Assembly (NCBI GenBank): GCA_048886185.1
Contig: JBHLKY010000023.1
Coordinates: 1-32,000 of the forward strand
From: Candidatus Hermodarchaeota archaeon
Lineage (GTDB): Archaea; Asgardarchaeota; Heimdallarchaeia; Hodarchaeales; Hodarchaeaceae
DNA: 32,000 nucleotides
Reading direction: 5' to 3'
Below are positions 3 to 9,830 of the stretch, one piece after another. A program made the position numbers and the translations under genes. Below the pieces are notes generated by a model. The model made no database searches and had not been told where the DNA came from. It worked only from the letters and a program-made list of their open reading frames with translations. Position 1 is the first letter of the stretch; every line of letters begins with the position of its first letter.

Positions 3-647
3 GCCATCACTGTTATGTTTCTTCTCCTTCCTCTGTTATTACATAGTAAGTATAAGATTCTCAGTTACTTAAGTATTGGAATTGGGTTTCATTGGAAATA
101 TATTTCTCTCATTCTCCTTCCTTATCTATTAATAATTGATTATGTTGAAAATAAACAGGTATTATTTGGATTTTTAACTGTTATCACTTCAATGATATTC
201 CTATCTTTTCCCCTACTCTTTTCACAATTTGTATTACGTTATTTCAGTTCATTTGGTAATTTAGAATTGTATTCTGGTCAAATTCCGTCAAATCCTCTAT
301 ATTTATTCTACCCTAGTATTTCCTCCCTACTATCCTCCCTCCTTCTGATTCTCGCCATACTGTACTGGGTAGGTATTTTTCCTCAAATTGATATGTCGAA
401 TATCAATATCCATGGGATTCTTGAACGGGTATATTGGTTCCCCTTTATTCTTCTTCTTGGTTTTCTTAAGATCTATGCTACTGCTTTTCCATGGTATTGG
501 ATGTGGTTTTACCCCTGCCTAATTATTCTCCCAAGAAAAATCCGAAGTTTATTCGCTGTTCTTTTAGGAGTTACATTTGCAATTGGACTTCTTGATTTTG
601 TTCAGATGACAGTAGGCTTTAAAACACTCATAGAACACTTTTTTTAA
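3..647 (+). CDS. Polytopic membrane protein, probably 5'-truncated by the window edge; possibly GT-C/GT87-like glycosyltransferase
   Basis: Frame is open to the window start and highly hydrophobic. GIGFHWKYISLILLPYL and YPWYWMW-like aromatic segments resemble GT-C membrane glycosyltransferases, but the family call is weak. Confidence 0.45.
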   Translation, partial: AITVMFLLLPLLLHSKYKILSYLSIGIGFHWKYISLILLPYLLIIDYVENKQVLFGFLTVITSMIFLSFPLLFSQFVLRYFSSFGNLELYSGQIPSNPLYLFYPSISSLLSSLLLILAILYWVGIFPQIDMSNINIHGILERVYWFPFILLLGFLKIYATAFPWYWMWFYPCLIILPRKIRSLFAVLLGVTFAIGLLDFVQMTVGFKTLIEHFF

Positions 648-2920: not shown

Positions 2921-3568
2921 TTGAAACTTCAATGTGTGATCTTTGACATCGATGGTACTCTTGTGGACAACAGTGTTGACATTATTCGCTTATTTCAAAA
3001 GATTATGAAAAAATATCTGGATAAAGAAATGTCAGATCAAGAAGTTCTTTCTCTGTGGGGGCCTCCTGGTGATGAAATTTTTAGGAATGTTTTCCCTTCA
3101 GATCTAGTAGACCCTGCCTGGACGGAGTTCCTCCAAAGTTATCGTGAAATACATTCAACGACAGGATTTTTCACTAGAGATCAGTTGGTAAAAATAAAAA
3201 CTAATGTCCCCTACTTAACCATTTTCACCGGGAAGAGTAGAACTACAATGGGCATAACCTTAGAAAAATTAGGAATATTCGATCTTTTCGATCTTATATT
3301 GACTGGAAATGATGTCACTCGTTCAAAACCATATCCAGATGCGCTATATCGGACTGTTAGTACTTTTAACTTAAATAAAGATGAAACTCTTTTCATAGGA
3401 GATAGTCATCTAGATATTATGGCAGGAAAAGCGGCAGGGATAAAAACTGCTGCTGCTCTATGGGGAGCTGTTGAACCTCAAAGGTTATTAGAAAGTAGAC
3501 CTGATTATACTTTTGGTACTCCAAAGGAATTTATGGACTTCGTGCTTTCAGAAGACAGGTTTGCTTAA
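2921..3568 (+). CDS. HAD-superfamily phosphatase (Gph/PpaX-like)
   Basis: Motif I IFDIDGT, FTGK, KPYPD, FIGDSHLDIMAGKAAG; TTG start. Confidence 0.9.
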   Translation: MKLQCVIFDIDGTLVDNSVDIIRLFQKIMKKYLDKEMSDQEVLSLWGPPGDEIFRNVFPSDLVDPAWTEFLQSYREIHSTTGFFTRDQLVKIKTNVPYLTIFTGKSRTTMGITLEKLGIFDLFDLILTGNDVTRSKPYPDALYRTVSTFNLNKDETLFIGDSHLDIMAGKAAGIKTAAALWGAVEPQRLLESRPDYTFGTPKEFMDFVLSEDRFA

Positions 3569-5707
3569 ATGACTTCTAAATTAATTGAAGAAAAATTCCC
3601 TATCCTTGAGATAAGTAAGCTAGCTATCCCTGAGAGAAGTAGTTACAAACCTATATACCAGATTTCTAAGTGGTTTGCTCGACGTTCATCTTCTATATTC
3701 AGAGCGATTTTGTTGGGGTCAATACTTCCACCATCAGATGACCTCATGATGAATTTTTACCTTGACCATGACTTCTCAGATATAACTGTTCTCGATCCAT
3801 TCATGGGTGGGGGGACAACTATAATCGAAGGGTTACGATTAGGTTTAAGTTGTGTTGGTGTTGATATCAACCCAGTAGCTTGGTTCATTACAAAAACTGA
3901 AGCTGAAATGGTTGATTTAGGCGAACTTAAGAATTGGATAATGGATTGTGAGAAAAGGATTAAATCAAAAATCAAACAATGGTACTTAACTGAATGCCCA
4001 ATATGTCACCATCAAGCAGATATCATTTATACTCATTGGGTTAAATTGGTACCCTGTGAGAAATGTAAAAGTCAAGTTCCATTATTTCGAAACTTTATAG
4101 TCACCGCGAAAAAGGGAATTGCCACAATCTTATGTCCCTCCTGTGAAGCTATATTTGAGTATTCAGACTCGGTAAAAGGAGTACAAAGTTGTCCACAGTG
4201 CCAGTTCAAATTTAATCCCCTGAAAGGGAATCGGATCGGACGTAATGACTGTAGCTGCGCAAAATGTGGGAACATAACAAATATAATTGCCTTTCTCAAA
4301 AGGAATAAGAACCCTTTAGAAAGTAAATTATTCGCTATCGAGGGATATTGTTCAACTTGTGCCAATAACAATAATGAATTGTCTCCTCTTAAAACCACCC
4401 GATTTAAATTCATTAAAGCGGTTTCTAAACAGGATATTGATCTCTTCAACAAATCTAAAGAACAATGGAAACTTTATTCAGCTAAAATCCCATGGCCAAA
4501 AGATTTAATCCCCCTTGGAGTAGCTACGAAAACCCTTCATAATCATAACTATAAGAAATGGTCAGAATTATTCAATAGCCGTCAATTAATGGCTCTTACT
4601 ATGATTCTGGATTACATCCATAAGATTCCAGAGAGAATTTATCAAGAAATGTTTTTGGCTGCATTTGTAAATCTTCTTAACCATAATAATGTGTTCACAA
4701 GGTATTCTCCTAAAGGTCAGAAGGTAGAGGGAATCTTTGCTCGACATGATTTTCATCCTCTTTCAACATTTGCCGAAAACAATGTCTGGGGCACTAAATA
4801 TGGAAGAGGAACTTGGAGAAAATGTGTTAGGCAGCTCCTGAAAGGAAAGGAGTATAATCAAGCTCCTTATAATTATGTTCGGTACGAAAGTGATGGAGGA
4901 ATAACGAGAAAGAAGAAAACTTTTATTGGAAAAATTAATGGAAAAACGATTTCAGAATATGATGTAAATTTTCCTTCAGCTAAAAGCAATTTATTGCTTC
5001 TTTGCCAAGATGCAGAGGATCTTAAAGGGATTGCATTGTCTGTTGATCTCATCATTTCAGATCCACCATATGCTGATAATGTAAATTACTCTGAATTATC
5101 AGATTTTTTCTATGTATGGCTTCGATTGGTTCTTCAAAGTAGATATCCCTGGTTTTCTACAAATGAAACACCAAAGGATTCAGAAGCTATTATCAACCCA
5201 AATCGCCCCTTAAACTATTATGAGAAGTTAATTGAGATTCTTAAGGTCACGAAAGGGAAGCTTAAATCTAATGGATTATTAGTTTTCACATTTCATCACT
5301 CTGAGAAACAAACATGGTTTAAGCTAGCTGAGGTTATTACACAATCAGGATTCAGAGTAGTAAAGACGTATGCGATTCCGAGTGAAGCTCGAAATGTATT
5401 GAATATTCAAAAAAAGAAAGCTATTGCTTTTGATTTAATAATTGTATGTCGTTTTGATATACAAATACAACGCAAGATTATTTCCTTAGAGAAATTCAAA
5501 CAACTTTTCCTGAAATTTTATAAGAAAAGATTGGAATTATACAACATGGCAGATATTAAAGTAATGGATTATGATCATTTAGCTATTTATTCAGGGATTC
5601 TACTTGAAATGGATTCGAACTACCATGTTGTAAGTCATTCAGGGCACTACCTCTCTCAAAGTGAAATTTGGGAATACAGTTATGACCTAATGACTTCCTC
5701 CTTATAA
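3569..5707 (+). CDS. DUF1156/COG1743-type adenine-specific DNA methyltransferase with multiple Zn ribbons
   Basis: N-terminal LIEEKFP...KWFARR (DUF1156-like), motif I VLDPFMGGGT, motif IV SDPPYADNVNYSELSDFFYVWL, LVFTFHHS, and six CxxC pairs. ATG directly follows the HAD stop codon. Confidence 0.85.
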   Translation: MTSKLIEEKFPILEISKLAIPERSSYKPIYQISKWFARRSSSIFRAILLGSILPPSDDLMMNFYLDHDFSDITVLDPFMGGGTTIIEGLRLGLSCVGVDINPVAWFITKTEAEMVDLGELKNWIMDCEKRIKSKIKQWYLTECPICHHQADIIYTHWVKLVPCEKCKSQVPLFRNFIVTAKKGIATILCPSCEAIFEYSDSVKGVQSCPQCQFKFNPLKGNRIGRNDCSCAKCGNITNIIAFLKRNKNPLESKLFAIEGYCSTCANNNNELSPLKTTRFKFIKAVSKQDIDLFNKSKEQWKLYSAKIPWPKDLIPLGVATKTLHNHNYKKWSELFNSRQLMALTMILDYIHKIPERIYQEMFLAAFVNLLNHNNVFTRYSPKGQKVEGIFARHDFHPLSTFAENNVWGTKYGRGTWRKCVRQLLKGKEYNQAPYNYVRYESDGGITRKKKTFIGKINGKTISEYDVNFPSAKSNLLLLCQDAEDLKGIALSVDLIISDPPYADNVNYSELSDFFYVWLRLVLQSRYPWFSTNETPKDSEAIINPNRPLNYYEKLIEILKVTKGKLKSNGLLVFTFHHSEKQTWFKLAEVITQSGFRVVKTYAIPSEARNVLNIQKKKAIAFDLIIVCRFDIQIQRKIISLEKFKQLFLKFYKKRLELYNMADIKVMDYDHLAIYSGILLEMDSNYHVVSHSGHYLSQSEIWEYSYDLMTSSL

Positions 5708-5726
5708 AAAAGCTTTTGGGTTTAAA

Positions 5727-6491
5727 ATGTCTAGGGAATCAAATTATGAACTCATGATTGGAGATGTTCTCGAAACTCTACCATTAAAAGCAGAAAAACG
5801 GTTTTTTGATCTTATTATTGCTGATCCTCCTTTTGGAATTTCGTTTAATAAATCCAGCCATGAATATGGTGCTGAGGATTATGACTTATATCAAGATAAT
5901 TTTACACCTGAAACTTATTTTGAATTCTCCAAACAATGGATTCAAACCTGTTATAATGTATTAAATGTTAATGGGAGTCTTTACATAATATCTGGATGGA
6001 CTAATCTTCAATACATTCTGAATGCAATTAAACATACTAAGTTTCATATGTTGAACCATATAATTTGGCAGTTTACGTGGGGGGTTTATACCAAAAGACG
6101 ATATGCTACAAGCCATTATCACATTCTTCTATTGGTTAAAAATAAGAAAAATTATCAGTTTTACAAACAGAAACATTACGACGAGGACGTATTCTTTTGG
6201 CCAGATTATAATCGGGGAAATGATCCGCATCGTATAAAAGGACATCCATGCCAGTTGCCAATTGTACTCTTAAGGAAATTAATCCTCACCTCCAGTTCAC
6301 CTGGTGATCTTGTAGGAGACGTCTTTTCAGGAAGTGGAGGAACAATCCTGGCAGCGCGTCAAACATGTCGTGATGTAGTGGGATTTGAAATAAGAGAAGA
6401 ATATAAAGATATTATTTATCAGAAAGCCCGATTTGGAAAACTAGTGTCTCCCTCGGTTAAGCAATCTACTCTAGAAAGTTACCTAGAATGA
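5727..6491 (+). CDS. Beta-class N4/N6 DNA methyltransferase with a C-terminal PIP-box-like tail
   Basis: Motif IV IIADPPF near the N-terminus, IIW, HPCQLP, and motif I VGDVFSGSG near the C-terminus. Ends KQSTLESYLE*. Confidence 0.88.
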   Translation: MSRESNYELMIGDVLETLPLKAEKRFFDLIIADPPFGISFNKSSHEYGAEDYDLYQDNFTPETYFEFSKQWIQTCYNVLNVNGSLYIISGWTNLQYILNAIKHTKFHMLNHIIWQFTWGVYTKRRYATSHYHILLLVKNKKNYQFYKQKHYDEDVFFWPDYNRGNDPHRIKGHPCQLPIVLLRKLILTSSSPGDLVGDVFSGSGGTILAARQTCRDVVGFEIREEYKDIIYQKARFGKLVSPSVKQSTLESYLE

Positions 6492-6630
6492 GGAATCTCA
6501 TTAACTAGTCAATCACAGTGATAATTTGAAAAAAAAAAATAAAGCCATTTAATAAAACAGAATAAAGGCATTTTTAACAATTTTCTAGTTTCTATATGTT
6601 CTTATAGTGGAATAGTTGATTAAACTAACG

Positions 6631-7572
6631 ATGGCAATGGCTCAAGAAACAGATTTAGCGATCATTGGAGGAGGCCCAGCTGGTTTAACTGCTGCAATTT
6701 ACGGAGCTAGAATGGGTTTAAGGACTACAGTATTTGAAGCTGAGGAAATTGGGGGTGTTGCGCGAACAGCCAAAACAATCGAGAATTACCCCGGATTTAT
6801 AACGATTACTGGATCAGAATTAGTAGATAAGATGAAAGCCCAAGCTGAGCATTGTGGGGCTAAGATTATTCTTGATACCGTAGCTACAATTGATCATGCT
6901 AATATGATGATTACTACTTCAACGGATCAATGGAAAGCAGAAGCTATTATTGTTGCTACAGGATCAAAGCGTCGAAAGCTTGGATTGTCAAATGAAAAAG
7001 AACTTGAAGGGAGTGGGTTATCATACTGTGCTGTTTGTGATGGGCCAATTAACCGAGGAAATATAGTTGCTCTTGTTGGAGGCGGGAATACTGCAGCACA
7101 TGATGCTATCTATTTAGCTGGCGTAGCGAGAAAAGTTTTTCTAATTTATGAAGCTGATAAACTTGATGTCAATGAAACTATTGCAAGTCAAGTTTTTTCC
7201 CATACTGAGATTGTCCCAATGTTTAATTGTAAGATTGAAGAAGCTATAACAAAGCATGGGAATCTAAGAAAGCTAAGAGTGAAGAATCTTAAGACCACCG
7301 AAATATCGGAGATTCGGGTGAAAGCACTTTTTGTAGCAATTGGAGAAGATCCTTTCAAGCTAGCGACACTTATAGGAGTAGAAACAGAGATTTCTGGGAA
7401 TATTATTGTGAATAAGAACCAAGAAACTAGTGTTGATGGAATATATGCTGCTGGAGATGTCACAGGTGGGATTAAACAAATTGGAACCGCTGTTGGTGAG
7501 GGGATTGTCGCAGCACAGAGTGCAGGTTATTACATTAAAAGAAAAATTCGGATGAGGAAACAAACCAAATAG
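6631..7572 (+). CDS. trxB: Thioredoxin reductase (low-Mr, FAD-dependent)
   Basis: IIGGGPAGLTAAIY, IENYPG, ATGS, redox motif SYCAVCDG, VGGGNTA, GIYAAGDVTG. ATG at 6631 or 6637 is preferred to TTG 6616. Confidence 0.88.
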   Translation: MAMAQETDLAIIGGGPAGLTAAIYGARMGLRTTVFEAEEIGGVARTAKTIENYPGFITITGSELVDKMKAQAEHCGAKIILDTVATIDHANMMITTSTDQWKAEAIIVATGSKRRKLGLSNEKELEGSGLSYCAVCDGPINRGNIVALVGGGNTAAHDAIYLAGVARKVFLIYEADKLDVNETIASQVFSHTEIVPMFNCKIEEAITKHGNLRKLRVKNLKTTEISEIRVKALFVAIGEDPFKLATLIGVETEISGNIIVNKNQETSVDGIYAAGDVTGGIKQIGTAVGEGIVAAQSAGYYIKRKIRMRKQTK

Positions 7573-7627
7573 CTGAATATTATATTTCTGATAAAAATGT
7601 CAAACACTTTTCCGGAAGATGAACTAA

Positions 7628-7988: not shown

Positions 7989-9830
7989 TCAGTTGCTAGA
8001 AACAGGTATGGAGAAAGTCTCGCAATGGTAGTATTGAAGTATTAATTTATCTAATTCTTGGATTAAATGTGTCTTCAGAGGTTTTGCAACAGTAATTTCC
8101 TTCGCTAAATGGACAATTTGACGGAATAACGGGTTATTAAGATCAGGATTCTTGAGAGGAAGACGTTTAAGATTACGAATTGATATTGCATTAGTGTATT
8201 TTGAGCCCAAGTTAAATTGACTTTCATAAAACCATCTGTAAAGAGAAGAATTAAGAATAGAAAGAATATAAAATAGTAAATCAGAATTTTTACTATATTC
8301 TGTTGTTAATGTCAAGTTATATACATTTTGGGTGGTCCAGTAATTATTTGAATCATATGCGGCACAAAGAAATGGTTTAATCTTTTGAACGACAAGCTTG
8401 GGTGAACTATAAATAGATGGATCTTTCTTCGATCGGTATATAACTTTTGGATCAATGAAATGTGTTTTATTGATAGAGAATGCCTCAAAATCATCCCCAG
8501 TTAAAATTGGTTGATTCTTTTTAGAAGTAGGGGTCTTTTGGATTATATACTTAGTTTTTAAATTAATTTTTGGTAAGGAGTTATGGCAGGAGGAGCATTG
8601 AATGAGAGTTTTTCTACTCGATAAAGGAACCCATTCAATACAATTCGGACAATACATTACTCCACCACGTTTTGAGAGTTCTTCTCCTCTCTTTATCGTT
8701 AGAAATTGATTCAAAGGAGTGGAATCCTCGTGAATAAGCTTAATAATTTGTTGAGATTGCGAGTTAAATTCTTTTGTGAAAATAAAATCAATATTGGTTG
8801 TATAAGAGACTTGAGGGACACGATTCTTACCATCAATCAGAATCATGTGCTCTAATGAAATATTCTTTGAATAAGCTCCAATTAAGGAGATAAATTCTTG
8901 AGTAACGTCTTGGAAAAGGCCATGGAAATTTATGGAAAGGATTTGAAAATTTGTGGCAATAAATTTTCGGAGATGAATGTACTGGTTCGAACGTGCAATA
9001 TTTTTCGGGAGGAGATAAGCCAATAATCCTTTATCAGGAGTTATCAGATTTGCAGCCTTGTAAACAAAGAGAGAAAACGTGTTAAGATTTCTCTTTGGAC
9101 TTTGAAGTCCAAATTTATCATAATAATACTCTCTCTGACTTTTACTCAATTTCCCCCCCCAGGGAGGATTTCCAATAACAATATCAAAACCATTGGTGGT
9201 GGAAGGAAGACTAGTCCAATCTGATAATGAACTTTCTAAAAAATCTCCAAGAACAATGTTTGTGCTCAATATCTCATTAAAAGATGAGGGAGGGGGGTTC
9301 GAAAATAGTTTAATGAGGTTTTTATAACACATTGAAATAGCTTTAGGATTTATTTCCATTCCAAAAAAATTTGAATTAAAAATATCTAGAATAGCTTGAT
9401 CAGAGTTTTTTTTATCGGATTTTAAAAGAGTATTAATTTTATCTTCAATTTTTCTTATTGAAACAATGCTTGCTCGTAAAAATTCTCCTTCTCCTGCTGC
9501 TCCATCAAGAATTCGAATGCTTTTTAATGCCGTTCTTAATTTCACTATTTCTGATAGCTCTGCAGTATTAAGGATTTCGTTAAGACATAAAAATTTAGAA
9601 TCTATCTGTTGATTTAGATGCCTTGTTAAATAGTGGTCGATTGCTGTTTCTGTCATAGATTGTGCTAGATGGGAAGGTGTATAAAAGGCTCCGAATTCCT
9701 TTCTTCTACGGGCTTCTAAATCTTTATTGATAGTTTTCGACCTCTTTATTTTTAATTTTTCATAAACTACTAGTTTTCTAAATAAAAATCTATTGCCACA
9801 TTCTAAAAAGGGTCCATTCATGATGTTCAT
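7989..9830 (-). CDS. Gamma-class N6-adenine DNA methyltransferase (Eco57I/TaqI-like MTase plus TaqI_C-like TRD) with a Zn-ribbon insert
   Basis: Motif X FGAFYTP, motif I ILDGAAGEGEF, FGMEIN, GDFL, motif IV VIGNPPW; C-terminal PKLVVQKI...AAYD and YILSILNS. The start is uncertain (9830 or 9821). Confidence 0.85.
   Translation of the reverse strand: MNIMNGPFLECGNRFLFRKLVVYEKLKIKRSKTINKDLEARRRKEFGAFYTPSHLAQSMTETAIDHYLTRHLNQQIDSKFLCLNEILNTAELSEIVKLRTALKSIRILDGAAGEGEFLRASIVSIRKIEDKINTLLKSDKKNSDQAILDIFNSNFFGMEINPKAISMCYKNLIKLFSNPPPSSFNEILSTNIVLGDFLESSLSDWTSLPSTTNGFDIVIGNPPWGGKLSKSQREYYYDKFGLQSPKRNLNTFSLFVYKAANLITPDKGLLAYLLPKNIARSNQYIHLRKFIATNFQILSINFHGLFQDVTQEFISLIGAYSKNISLEHMILIDGKNRVPQVSYTTNIDFIFTKEFNSQSQQIIKLIHEDSTPLNQFLTIKRGEELSKRGGVMYCPNCIEWVPLSSRKTLIQCSSCHNSLPKINLKTKYIIQKTPTSKKNQPILTGDDFEAFSINKTHFIDPKVIYRSKKDPSIYSSPKLVVQKIKPFLCAAYDSNNYWTTQNVYNLTLTTEYSKNSDLLFYILSILNSSLYRWFYESQFNLGSKYTNAISIRNLKRLPLKNPDLNNPLFRQIVHLAKEITVAKPLKTHLIQELDKLILQYYHCETFSIPVSSN

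Follow-up and report, generated by a model that had tools for sequence, protein, structure and literature searches.

A beta-class DNA methyltransferase encoded by an archaeon of the order Hodarchaeales ends in a short conserved peptide, set off from its catalytic fold by a variable linker, that is likely to be a true docking peptide for the sliding clamp PCNA. The best explanation as a whole is a PCNA-tethered methyltransferase that would act in step with the replication fork, and we assign this reading a probability of about 0.68. Hodarchaeales, we infer, probably methylate new DNA right behind the fork.

The methyltransferase and its family

The gene lies at positions 5,727–6,491 (+) of the window, the whole 32,000-nucleotide stretch of DNA that was analysed. 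It is an intact open reading frame of 254 amino acids whose C-terminal end reads FGKLVSPSVKQSTLESYLE, the last residues before the stop codon being KQSTLESYLE. The protein matches the PF01555 N6_N4_Mtase profile (E 7e-40; 137.7 bits against a cut-off of 26.7) over profile positions 2–220 of 221. Catalytic motif IV, DPPF (residues 33–36; 5,823–5,834, +), stands N-terminal to the AdoMet-binding motif I, FSGSG (residues 200–204; 6,324–6,338, +), which is the motif order of the beta class. D33, P34, P35 and F36 of the former and F200, G202, S203 and G204 of the latter are invariant across 67 homologues. The best sequence relatives in the PDB, found with the family profile, are CcrM (E 9e-26), DpnA-type methyltransferases, M.MboIIA and M.RsrI. 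DPP[YF] is typical of N6-adenine enzymes, and the DPPF motif, taken with CcrM, the DpnA-type enzymes and M.RsrI as nearest relatives, suggests that the product is probably m6A. The NCBIfam equivalog cut-offs lie well above the scores obtained, at 830 bits against 95 for CcrM and 292 against 109 for PRK11524 (YhdJ). The AlphaFold2 (AF2) model built from 67 sequences has a pTM of 0.84 and places the last helix of the fold at residues 224–234. Judged from these features, the gene product would be an active, vertically inherited beta-class DNA amino-methyltransferase that probably forms m6A.

A conserved tail behind a variable linker

The feature under study comprises residues K245–E254, encoded exactly by positions 6,459–6,488. 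Its core, the PIP-box-like peptide QSTLESYL (residues 246–253; 6,462–6,485, +), fits the pattern Q-x-x-[LIM]-x-x-[FYW]-[FYWL] with Leu, not Phe, at position 8. The sequence-only reading, which had described a beta-class enzyme ending in a PIP-like peptide with matches at Q1, L4 and Y7 and a Leu at position 8, was therefore correct on the motif itself. The peptide follows a variable, disordered linker, RFGKLVSPSVK (residues 235–245; 6,429–6,461, +), which differs in length among orthologues. In the AF2 model the confidence drops to block pLDDT values of 55 and 46 over residues 241–254 (mean 55 for 241–250), a one-turn helix forms at 249–252 and the tail is unpacked from the fold.

That reading had also proposed to examine whether the tail is conserved while the linker diverges, and this is what the homologues display. 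All 60 database homologues at 63% identity or above carry [LIM]-x-x-[FYW]-[FLIM] within their last 12 residues; this relaxed motif is a common one, with a proteome background of 7.2% at C-termini. In an alignment of 59 sequences, whose interrelatedness makes conservation counts overstate independence, Leu at 249, Tyr or Phe at 252 and Leu, Phe or Ile at 253 are found in every sequence, and Asp or Glu at 250 in 57. Gln occupies the canonical position 1 (L-3) in 29 of the 59 orthologues and stands one residue earlier, at L-4, in 21. Column entropy in the same alignment reaches 1.5–3.6 bits over linker residues 238–245 against a mean of 0.66 bits in the catalytic core. Further, the invariant Leu249 is written with five codons (CTA, TTA, CTG, CTC and CTT) and the aromatic position 252 with four (TAC, TAT, TTT and TTC) across 19 species of the genus. 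From this synonymous turnover it follows that selection acts on the peptide, not on the DNA, and that this selection is purifying.

The motif extends beyond the genus. Many Asgard orthologues at 52–62% identity (labelled Sigynarchaeum, Helarchaeota and Promethearchaeota) keep it behind linkers of differing length, with tails such as SSLDAFMKS, KSLTQFL, VDLTTFLG and QTGLDAF. A clade at 54–55% identity labelled Thermoplasmata or Methanobacteriota ends in RRGL or KAWF and has no PIP box. The idea that the tail is an element of the PF01555 fold was rejected. Only a handful of 150 representatives of the family at large have any such tail motif, which is therefore not part of the fold; the AF2 tail is unpacked, and in relatives insertions shift the motif away from the last helix.

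The host clamp and its clients

The host is archaeal (Hodarchaeales), and the named homologues of both the methyltransferase and the host PCNA come from Hodarchaeales/Heimdallarchaeota MAGs. Its assembly (4.84 Mb in 75 contigs, 96% complete) contains one PCNA gene, on contig C9, and no DnaN, so that the PIP box is the relevant clamp motif. The PCNA (L001:1453-2352, contig C9) is extended at its C-terminus by a strongly acidic stretch, about 35 residues long, in which DEDWD-like units recur and which is conserved in the alignment consensus of Hodarchaeales homologues. This extension might attract basic residues that flank PIP tails.

In a crude set of 3740 ORFs from the host genome, a strict PIP box falls within the last 16 residues of 16 (0.4%), against 5.8 expected from the internal rate. 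A single PIP-like occurrence is thus weak evidence and not significant by itself; the signal for a real tail is its conservation among orthologues. The possibility that a low-complexity C-terminus has this ending by chance or as a neutral trait draws on these background rates, 0.4% of ORFs for strict boxes and the 7.2% of C-termini given above for relaxed patterns. It is very unlikely, given that the motif is kept in 60 of 60 orthologues beside a freely varying linker, that synonymous codons turn over at its invariant Leu, and that it recurs in five other methyltransferase families described below.

The 16 strict matches include PolB (GQVNLMEFFG), FEN1 (QQALDKFF), a Y-family polymerase (QLTLMPFLSHRA) and a radical-SAM/HhH protein. 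A less stringent scan brings in a further PolB (DMTLESFF), Nre (RKTLDAYF) and a DUF4130 protein. The PolB, FEN1, Nre and Y-family polymerase tails mean that established PCNA partners of this host use the same type of motif, which bears out the earlier expectation on this point. Several other proteins have ends of this kind. A DUF72 protein (C4:74601-75428, KRQMSLKDFF) and a RadA/Rad51-like protein (C5:149349-150155, KQQIPLTEFW) end in PIP boxes, as do both members of an adjacent pair made up of the radical-SAM/HhH and DUF4130 proteins (C18:28137-29914). By their tails, the four are candidate new PCNA clients. PIP-like ends also occur on a 210-aa ORF without a Pfam match at 15–647 (+) of the window (FKTLIEHFF) and, beyond the end of the window, on a 2314-aa Top6B-like ORF (C23:46416-53360, GRLDSYMTKE).

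Docking model and proposed mechanism

A complex was modelled from PCNA residues 1–256 and methyltransferase residues 213–254, both supplied as alignments built for this analysis, in three runs with three controls. In this comparison, which the earlier reading had called for, the peptide was placed in what we take to be the canonical PIP site. The ipSAE was 0.69 (runs 0.68, 0.70 and 0.69) against 0.00 for the best control, a score that possibly reflects likeness to solved complexes, as PIP–PCNA is a textbook interface. Of 80 solved complexes, 58 attained this mark, as did 2 of 110 mismatched pairs. At least 93% of the contacts were common to the runs, with a partner pLDDT of about 50. The modelled interface joins methyltransferase residues 242–253 to PCNA residues 43, 46–50, 127–133, 205–210, 232–233 and 249–256, which presumably correspond to the hydrophobic pocket, the interdomain connecting loop and the C-terminal Gln pocket; many of the PCNA residues involved are invariant in 45 homologues. 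Passing this comparison means likeness to PIP–PCNA complexes and is not proof of binding.

The mechanism suggested by the model would be as follows. The catalytic fold would end at about residue 234 and be followed by a flexible linker of some 11 residues and the C-terminal PIP box QSTLESYL. The Leu, Tyr and Leu of the box would enter the hydrophobic pocket that lies beneath the interdomain connecting loop of the host's one PCNA, and its Gln the pocket that the PCNA C-terminus forms. Clamp rings remaining on newly made duplex DNA could then recruit the enzyme and let it slide or scan with them, and the target sites would regain their methyl groups just behind the fork, soon after synthesis. 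Both this timing and its benefit are what we infer from the predicted docking.

Five further methylases with PIP-like tails

About 27 ORFs of the host genome match PF01555 and, besides the focal gene, five of them end in PIP-like peptides. The core L-x-x-[FYW]-[LFI] is kept in 12 of 17 genus orthologues of a 360-aa enzyme (C19:50683-51765, tail TNLDQFFNTS), 10 of 12 of a 266-aa enzyme (C1:179413-180213, INLDSFL), 14 of 15 of a 307-aa enzyme (C5:5485-6408, PKLTDYLE), 15 of 16 of a 347-aa enzyme (C4:35833-36876, KTLQNFF) and all 18 of a 264-aa enzyme (C9:191608-192402, SNLDSWLVTTKK). A variable linker precedes the motif in each of these five orthogroups. The six PIP-tailed methyltransferases, focal enzyme included, share 21–34% mutual identity; three (the focal one among them) have DPP[YF] and three SPPY. 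With relatedness ignored, the strict core motif is enriched among the methyltransferase ORFs (3/27 versus 19/3713 others; Fisher p 5e-4). A C5-methyltransferase ending in AQQILMMFLEN also matches the strict expression but was set aside, its end being probably the motif-X helix. In three species (G057, G062 and G064), orthologues of the 360-aa enzyme contain one in-frame TAG, and their protein calls stop short of the PIP-like tail; truncation, a sequencing error or read-through could account for this.

The five families bear on the earlier proposal that a PCNA-docking tail couples this methyltransferase to replication. The proposal came through the comparisons of conservation, host motif and modelling, but the feature is not special to the focal enzyme. 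Overall, the earlier interpretation is partly supported, with binding itself predicted from sequence and model.

A PCNA-binding tail could also serve another end, such as PIP-degron-like timing of turnover, coupling to repair synthesis or competition with other clamp clients. It is established that PCNA serves repair and turnover pathways too, and basic residues flank the motif in orthologues (for example, PSKKQ and IPIRK). Nevertheless, we know of no CRL4-Cdt2-type machinery in archaea, and a tail common to six different methyltransferases fits a need shared by DNA methylation itself. The eukaryotic precedent, DNMT1, is likewise one of recruitment to new DNA (PMC9690074). We regard these other roles for PCNA binding as quite improbable, and fork-coupled methylation remains the preferred reading.

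Genomic setting

Orthologues at 69% identity or above are present in 19 of the 21 other species of the genus; in other Asgard families they are sporadic. The gene belongs to the core of the genus and is inherited vertically. The sequence-only reading had termed the enzyme an orphan. That description holds in so far as Pfam and PADLOC recognised methyltransferase models only, and no nuclease, in the conserved block. It should, however, be noted that restriction nucleases are hard to recognise, so that their absence from the block is not proven. The term also needs qualifying because the gene forms an operon with a second methyltransferase, a DUF1156-like Zn-ribbon DNA methyltransferase of 712 aa (3,569–5,707, +) with weak PF01555/DUF1156 matches. 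This gene is immediately upstream in 17 of 19 genus loci, with the focal gene 20–25 bp downstream of it, and the conserved block runs in the order HAD, DUF1156-like methyltransferase, focal methyltransferase and thioredoxin-reductase-like gene. Several CxxC Zn-ribbons separate motif I from DPPY in the DUF1156-like protein, whose C-terminus is not PIP-like. In length this protein falls well short of the anti-phage DUF1156/HmaB models, against which it scores 140 bits where the cut-off is 1000. The DUF499 and helicase partners of those systems are absent beside it, and its operon links it to a HAD hydrolase and the focal gene instead.

The operon bears on a further explanation for the conserved tail, namely that it is a linear motif for a partner other than PCNA: another hub protein, the DUF1156-like methyltransferase, a second copy of the enzyme in a dimer, or the enzyme itself in an autoinhibitory contact. 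In favour of this stand the shortness and generic character of the conserved core L-[DE]-x-[FY]-L, the variable placing of the canonical Gln, the link to the second methyltransferase in 17 of 19 loci, and the fact that a docking model is no proof of binding. Yet the two remaining loci have a HAD gene upstream instead, and their orthologues keep the tail without the DUF1156-like gene (RKTSLDQFL and RKTPLDHFL). Moreover, the same type of tail is found on five methyltransferase families at unrelated loci, it matches the tails of the host PolB, FEN1 and Nre, AF2 leaves it off the fold, and the controls that used an unrelated receptor gave 0.00. A different partner is in our estimate unlikely, and docking on PCNA is the reading carried forward here.

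The setting and the tail also bear on function. The earlier reading had taken the tail as a sign of an epigenetic or replication role rather than restriction defence, but the tail does not decide between these. It is no argument against defence, because fork-coupled methylation would serve a solitary epigenetic role and a protective one equally.

Two other methyltransferases in the window belong to the conserved cluster, and neither has a PIP-like tail. One is a permuted PF01555-type enzyme of 266 aa (2,026–2,826, -; Pfam and PADLOC MTase_II), the other an Eco57I/TaqI_C-type gamma-class enzyme of 613 aa (7,989–9,830, -; PF07669, PF12950 and PF20473). A beta-CASP/RNase J-like metallo-beta-lactamase gene (665–2,029, -) lies downstream of the permuted methyltransferase and overlaps it by 4 bp. 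In two further species the same two genes are paired beside the HAD gene. By its position, the metallo-beta-lactamase gene may encode a nuclease partner of the permuted methyltransferase. Among the matches to positions 3,500–7,600 of the window there was no RNA dataset; the DNA matches were sediment and estuary metagenomes only.

Relatives in bacteria and other archaea

A subfamily of homologues at 40–46% identity, drawn from named GTDB genomes, is very conserved, its mean column identity being 74%. A Bacteroidota member is 84–88% identical to Thermoplasmata members, which suggests horizontal spread across domains. The tail is [QE]-x-x-[LM]-F in ten of the 21 bacterial members (for example, QIDLF and QISLF directly before the stop codon, QLNLF and QPLLF), for which the background of the expression is 0.4%. 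The bacterial beta-clamp-binding pentapeptide is QL[SD]LF. The terminal QxxLF of these relatives resembles it by sequence and would occupy the same position as the archaeal PIP box, although it is a feature of the relatives and not of the focal protein. Members from Thermoplasmata and Nitrososphaeria carry Q-x-S-L-F-x-[WY]-[IV], a sequence that fits the PIP pattern as well.

A strictly domain-matched tail, with the beta-clamp motif in bacteria and the PIP box in archaea, was considered and holds only partly. Two genomes with DnaN and without PCNA also carry the longer form Q-x-S-L-F-x-[YW], so that the match of tail to domain is suggestive but not clean. As Q-x-S-L-F(-x-[WY]-[IV]) holds both the pentapeptide and the PIP box, one enzyme could dock on the clamp of either domain. 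In the AF2 model of the Bacteroidota homologue, the last residues have pLDDT values below 50 and are unpacked, and four members of the subfamily have insertions of 3–13 residues between the last helix and the motif; both observations fit a linear motif.

A wider proposal can be formulated from these relatives and the five further methylases. Clamp tethering may be general among prokaryotic-type amino-methyltransferases, with at least six m6A/m4C-type enzymes of Hodarchaeales riding PCNA, an origin independent of DNMT1 and, in the bacterial and archaeal subfamily, a tail that fits the clamp of either domain. This wider proposal is tentative, and we hold it to be possible but rather doubtful.

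Comparison with known systems

Binding of the tail to PCNA, if it occurs, would mean that these Asgard archaea couple DNA methylation physically to the replication fork. Such coupling would explain how the many marks of a genome that has about 27 PF01555 ORFs are kept complete, and would add a new enzyme class to the archaeal PCNA tool-belt. To our knowledge, fork-coupled DNA methylation outside viruses has so far been documented for eukaryotic DNMT1 only. On the wider proposal above, these close relatives of eukaryotes would possess replication-coupled maintenance methylation that arose independently of DNMT1. The tail is a directly testable handle on archaeal epigenetic inheritance, and the beta-clamp-like tails of the bacterial relatives suggest that the same logic may exist unnoticed in bacteria.

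No description of a clamp-binding prokaryotic amino-methyltransferase was found in the full-text literature, where coverage of subscription journals is thin, so novelty is unproven. Reviews of clamp clients list no archaeal or bacterial DNA methyltransferase (PMC4929162, PMC9690074); one mentions only a putative adenine methyltransferase that was recovered together with NucS, PCNA and RFC from P. abyssi (PMC4929162). The archaeal clients with C-terminal PIP boxes, namely FEN1, PolB, the RFC large subunit, Nre and the Y-family polymerase (PMC4929162), resemble the focal enzyme in the type of motif, its extreme C-terminal position, the flexible linker and the predicted docking site.

The persistent solitary methyltransferases CcrM, Dam and the haloarchaeal CTAG methyltransferase resemble it in another way, as vertically conserved core genes with no recognisable restriction partner. 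We know of none of the three that binds a sliding clamp. Dam and CcrM systems use delayed methylation as a signal, whereas tethering of the focal enzyme to the fork would shorten the hemimethylated period.

For DNMT1, a review describes a PIP-type peptide on a flexible region and considers that PCNA probably recruits the enzyme to DNA that has just been replicated (PMC9690074, citing Iida et al. 2002). The two are alike as DNA methyltransferases with a PIP-type peptide on a flexible region, a likeness in the proposed way of working and not one of membership. In DNMT1, a large multidomain C5-cytosine enzyme, the PIP box is near the N-terminus, whereas the focal protein is a single-domain prokaryotic amino-methyltransferase with the box at its extreme C-terminus. 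Its 254 residues hold a single PF01555 domain in place of the C5-cytosine domain with RFTS, CXXC and BAH domains that defines the DNMT1 family, and the two catalytic families have no homology beyond the Rossmann-like fold. Collectively, the focal tail would combine two known kinds, the PIP-box client and clamp-coupled methylation as in DNMT1.
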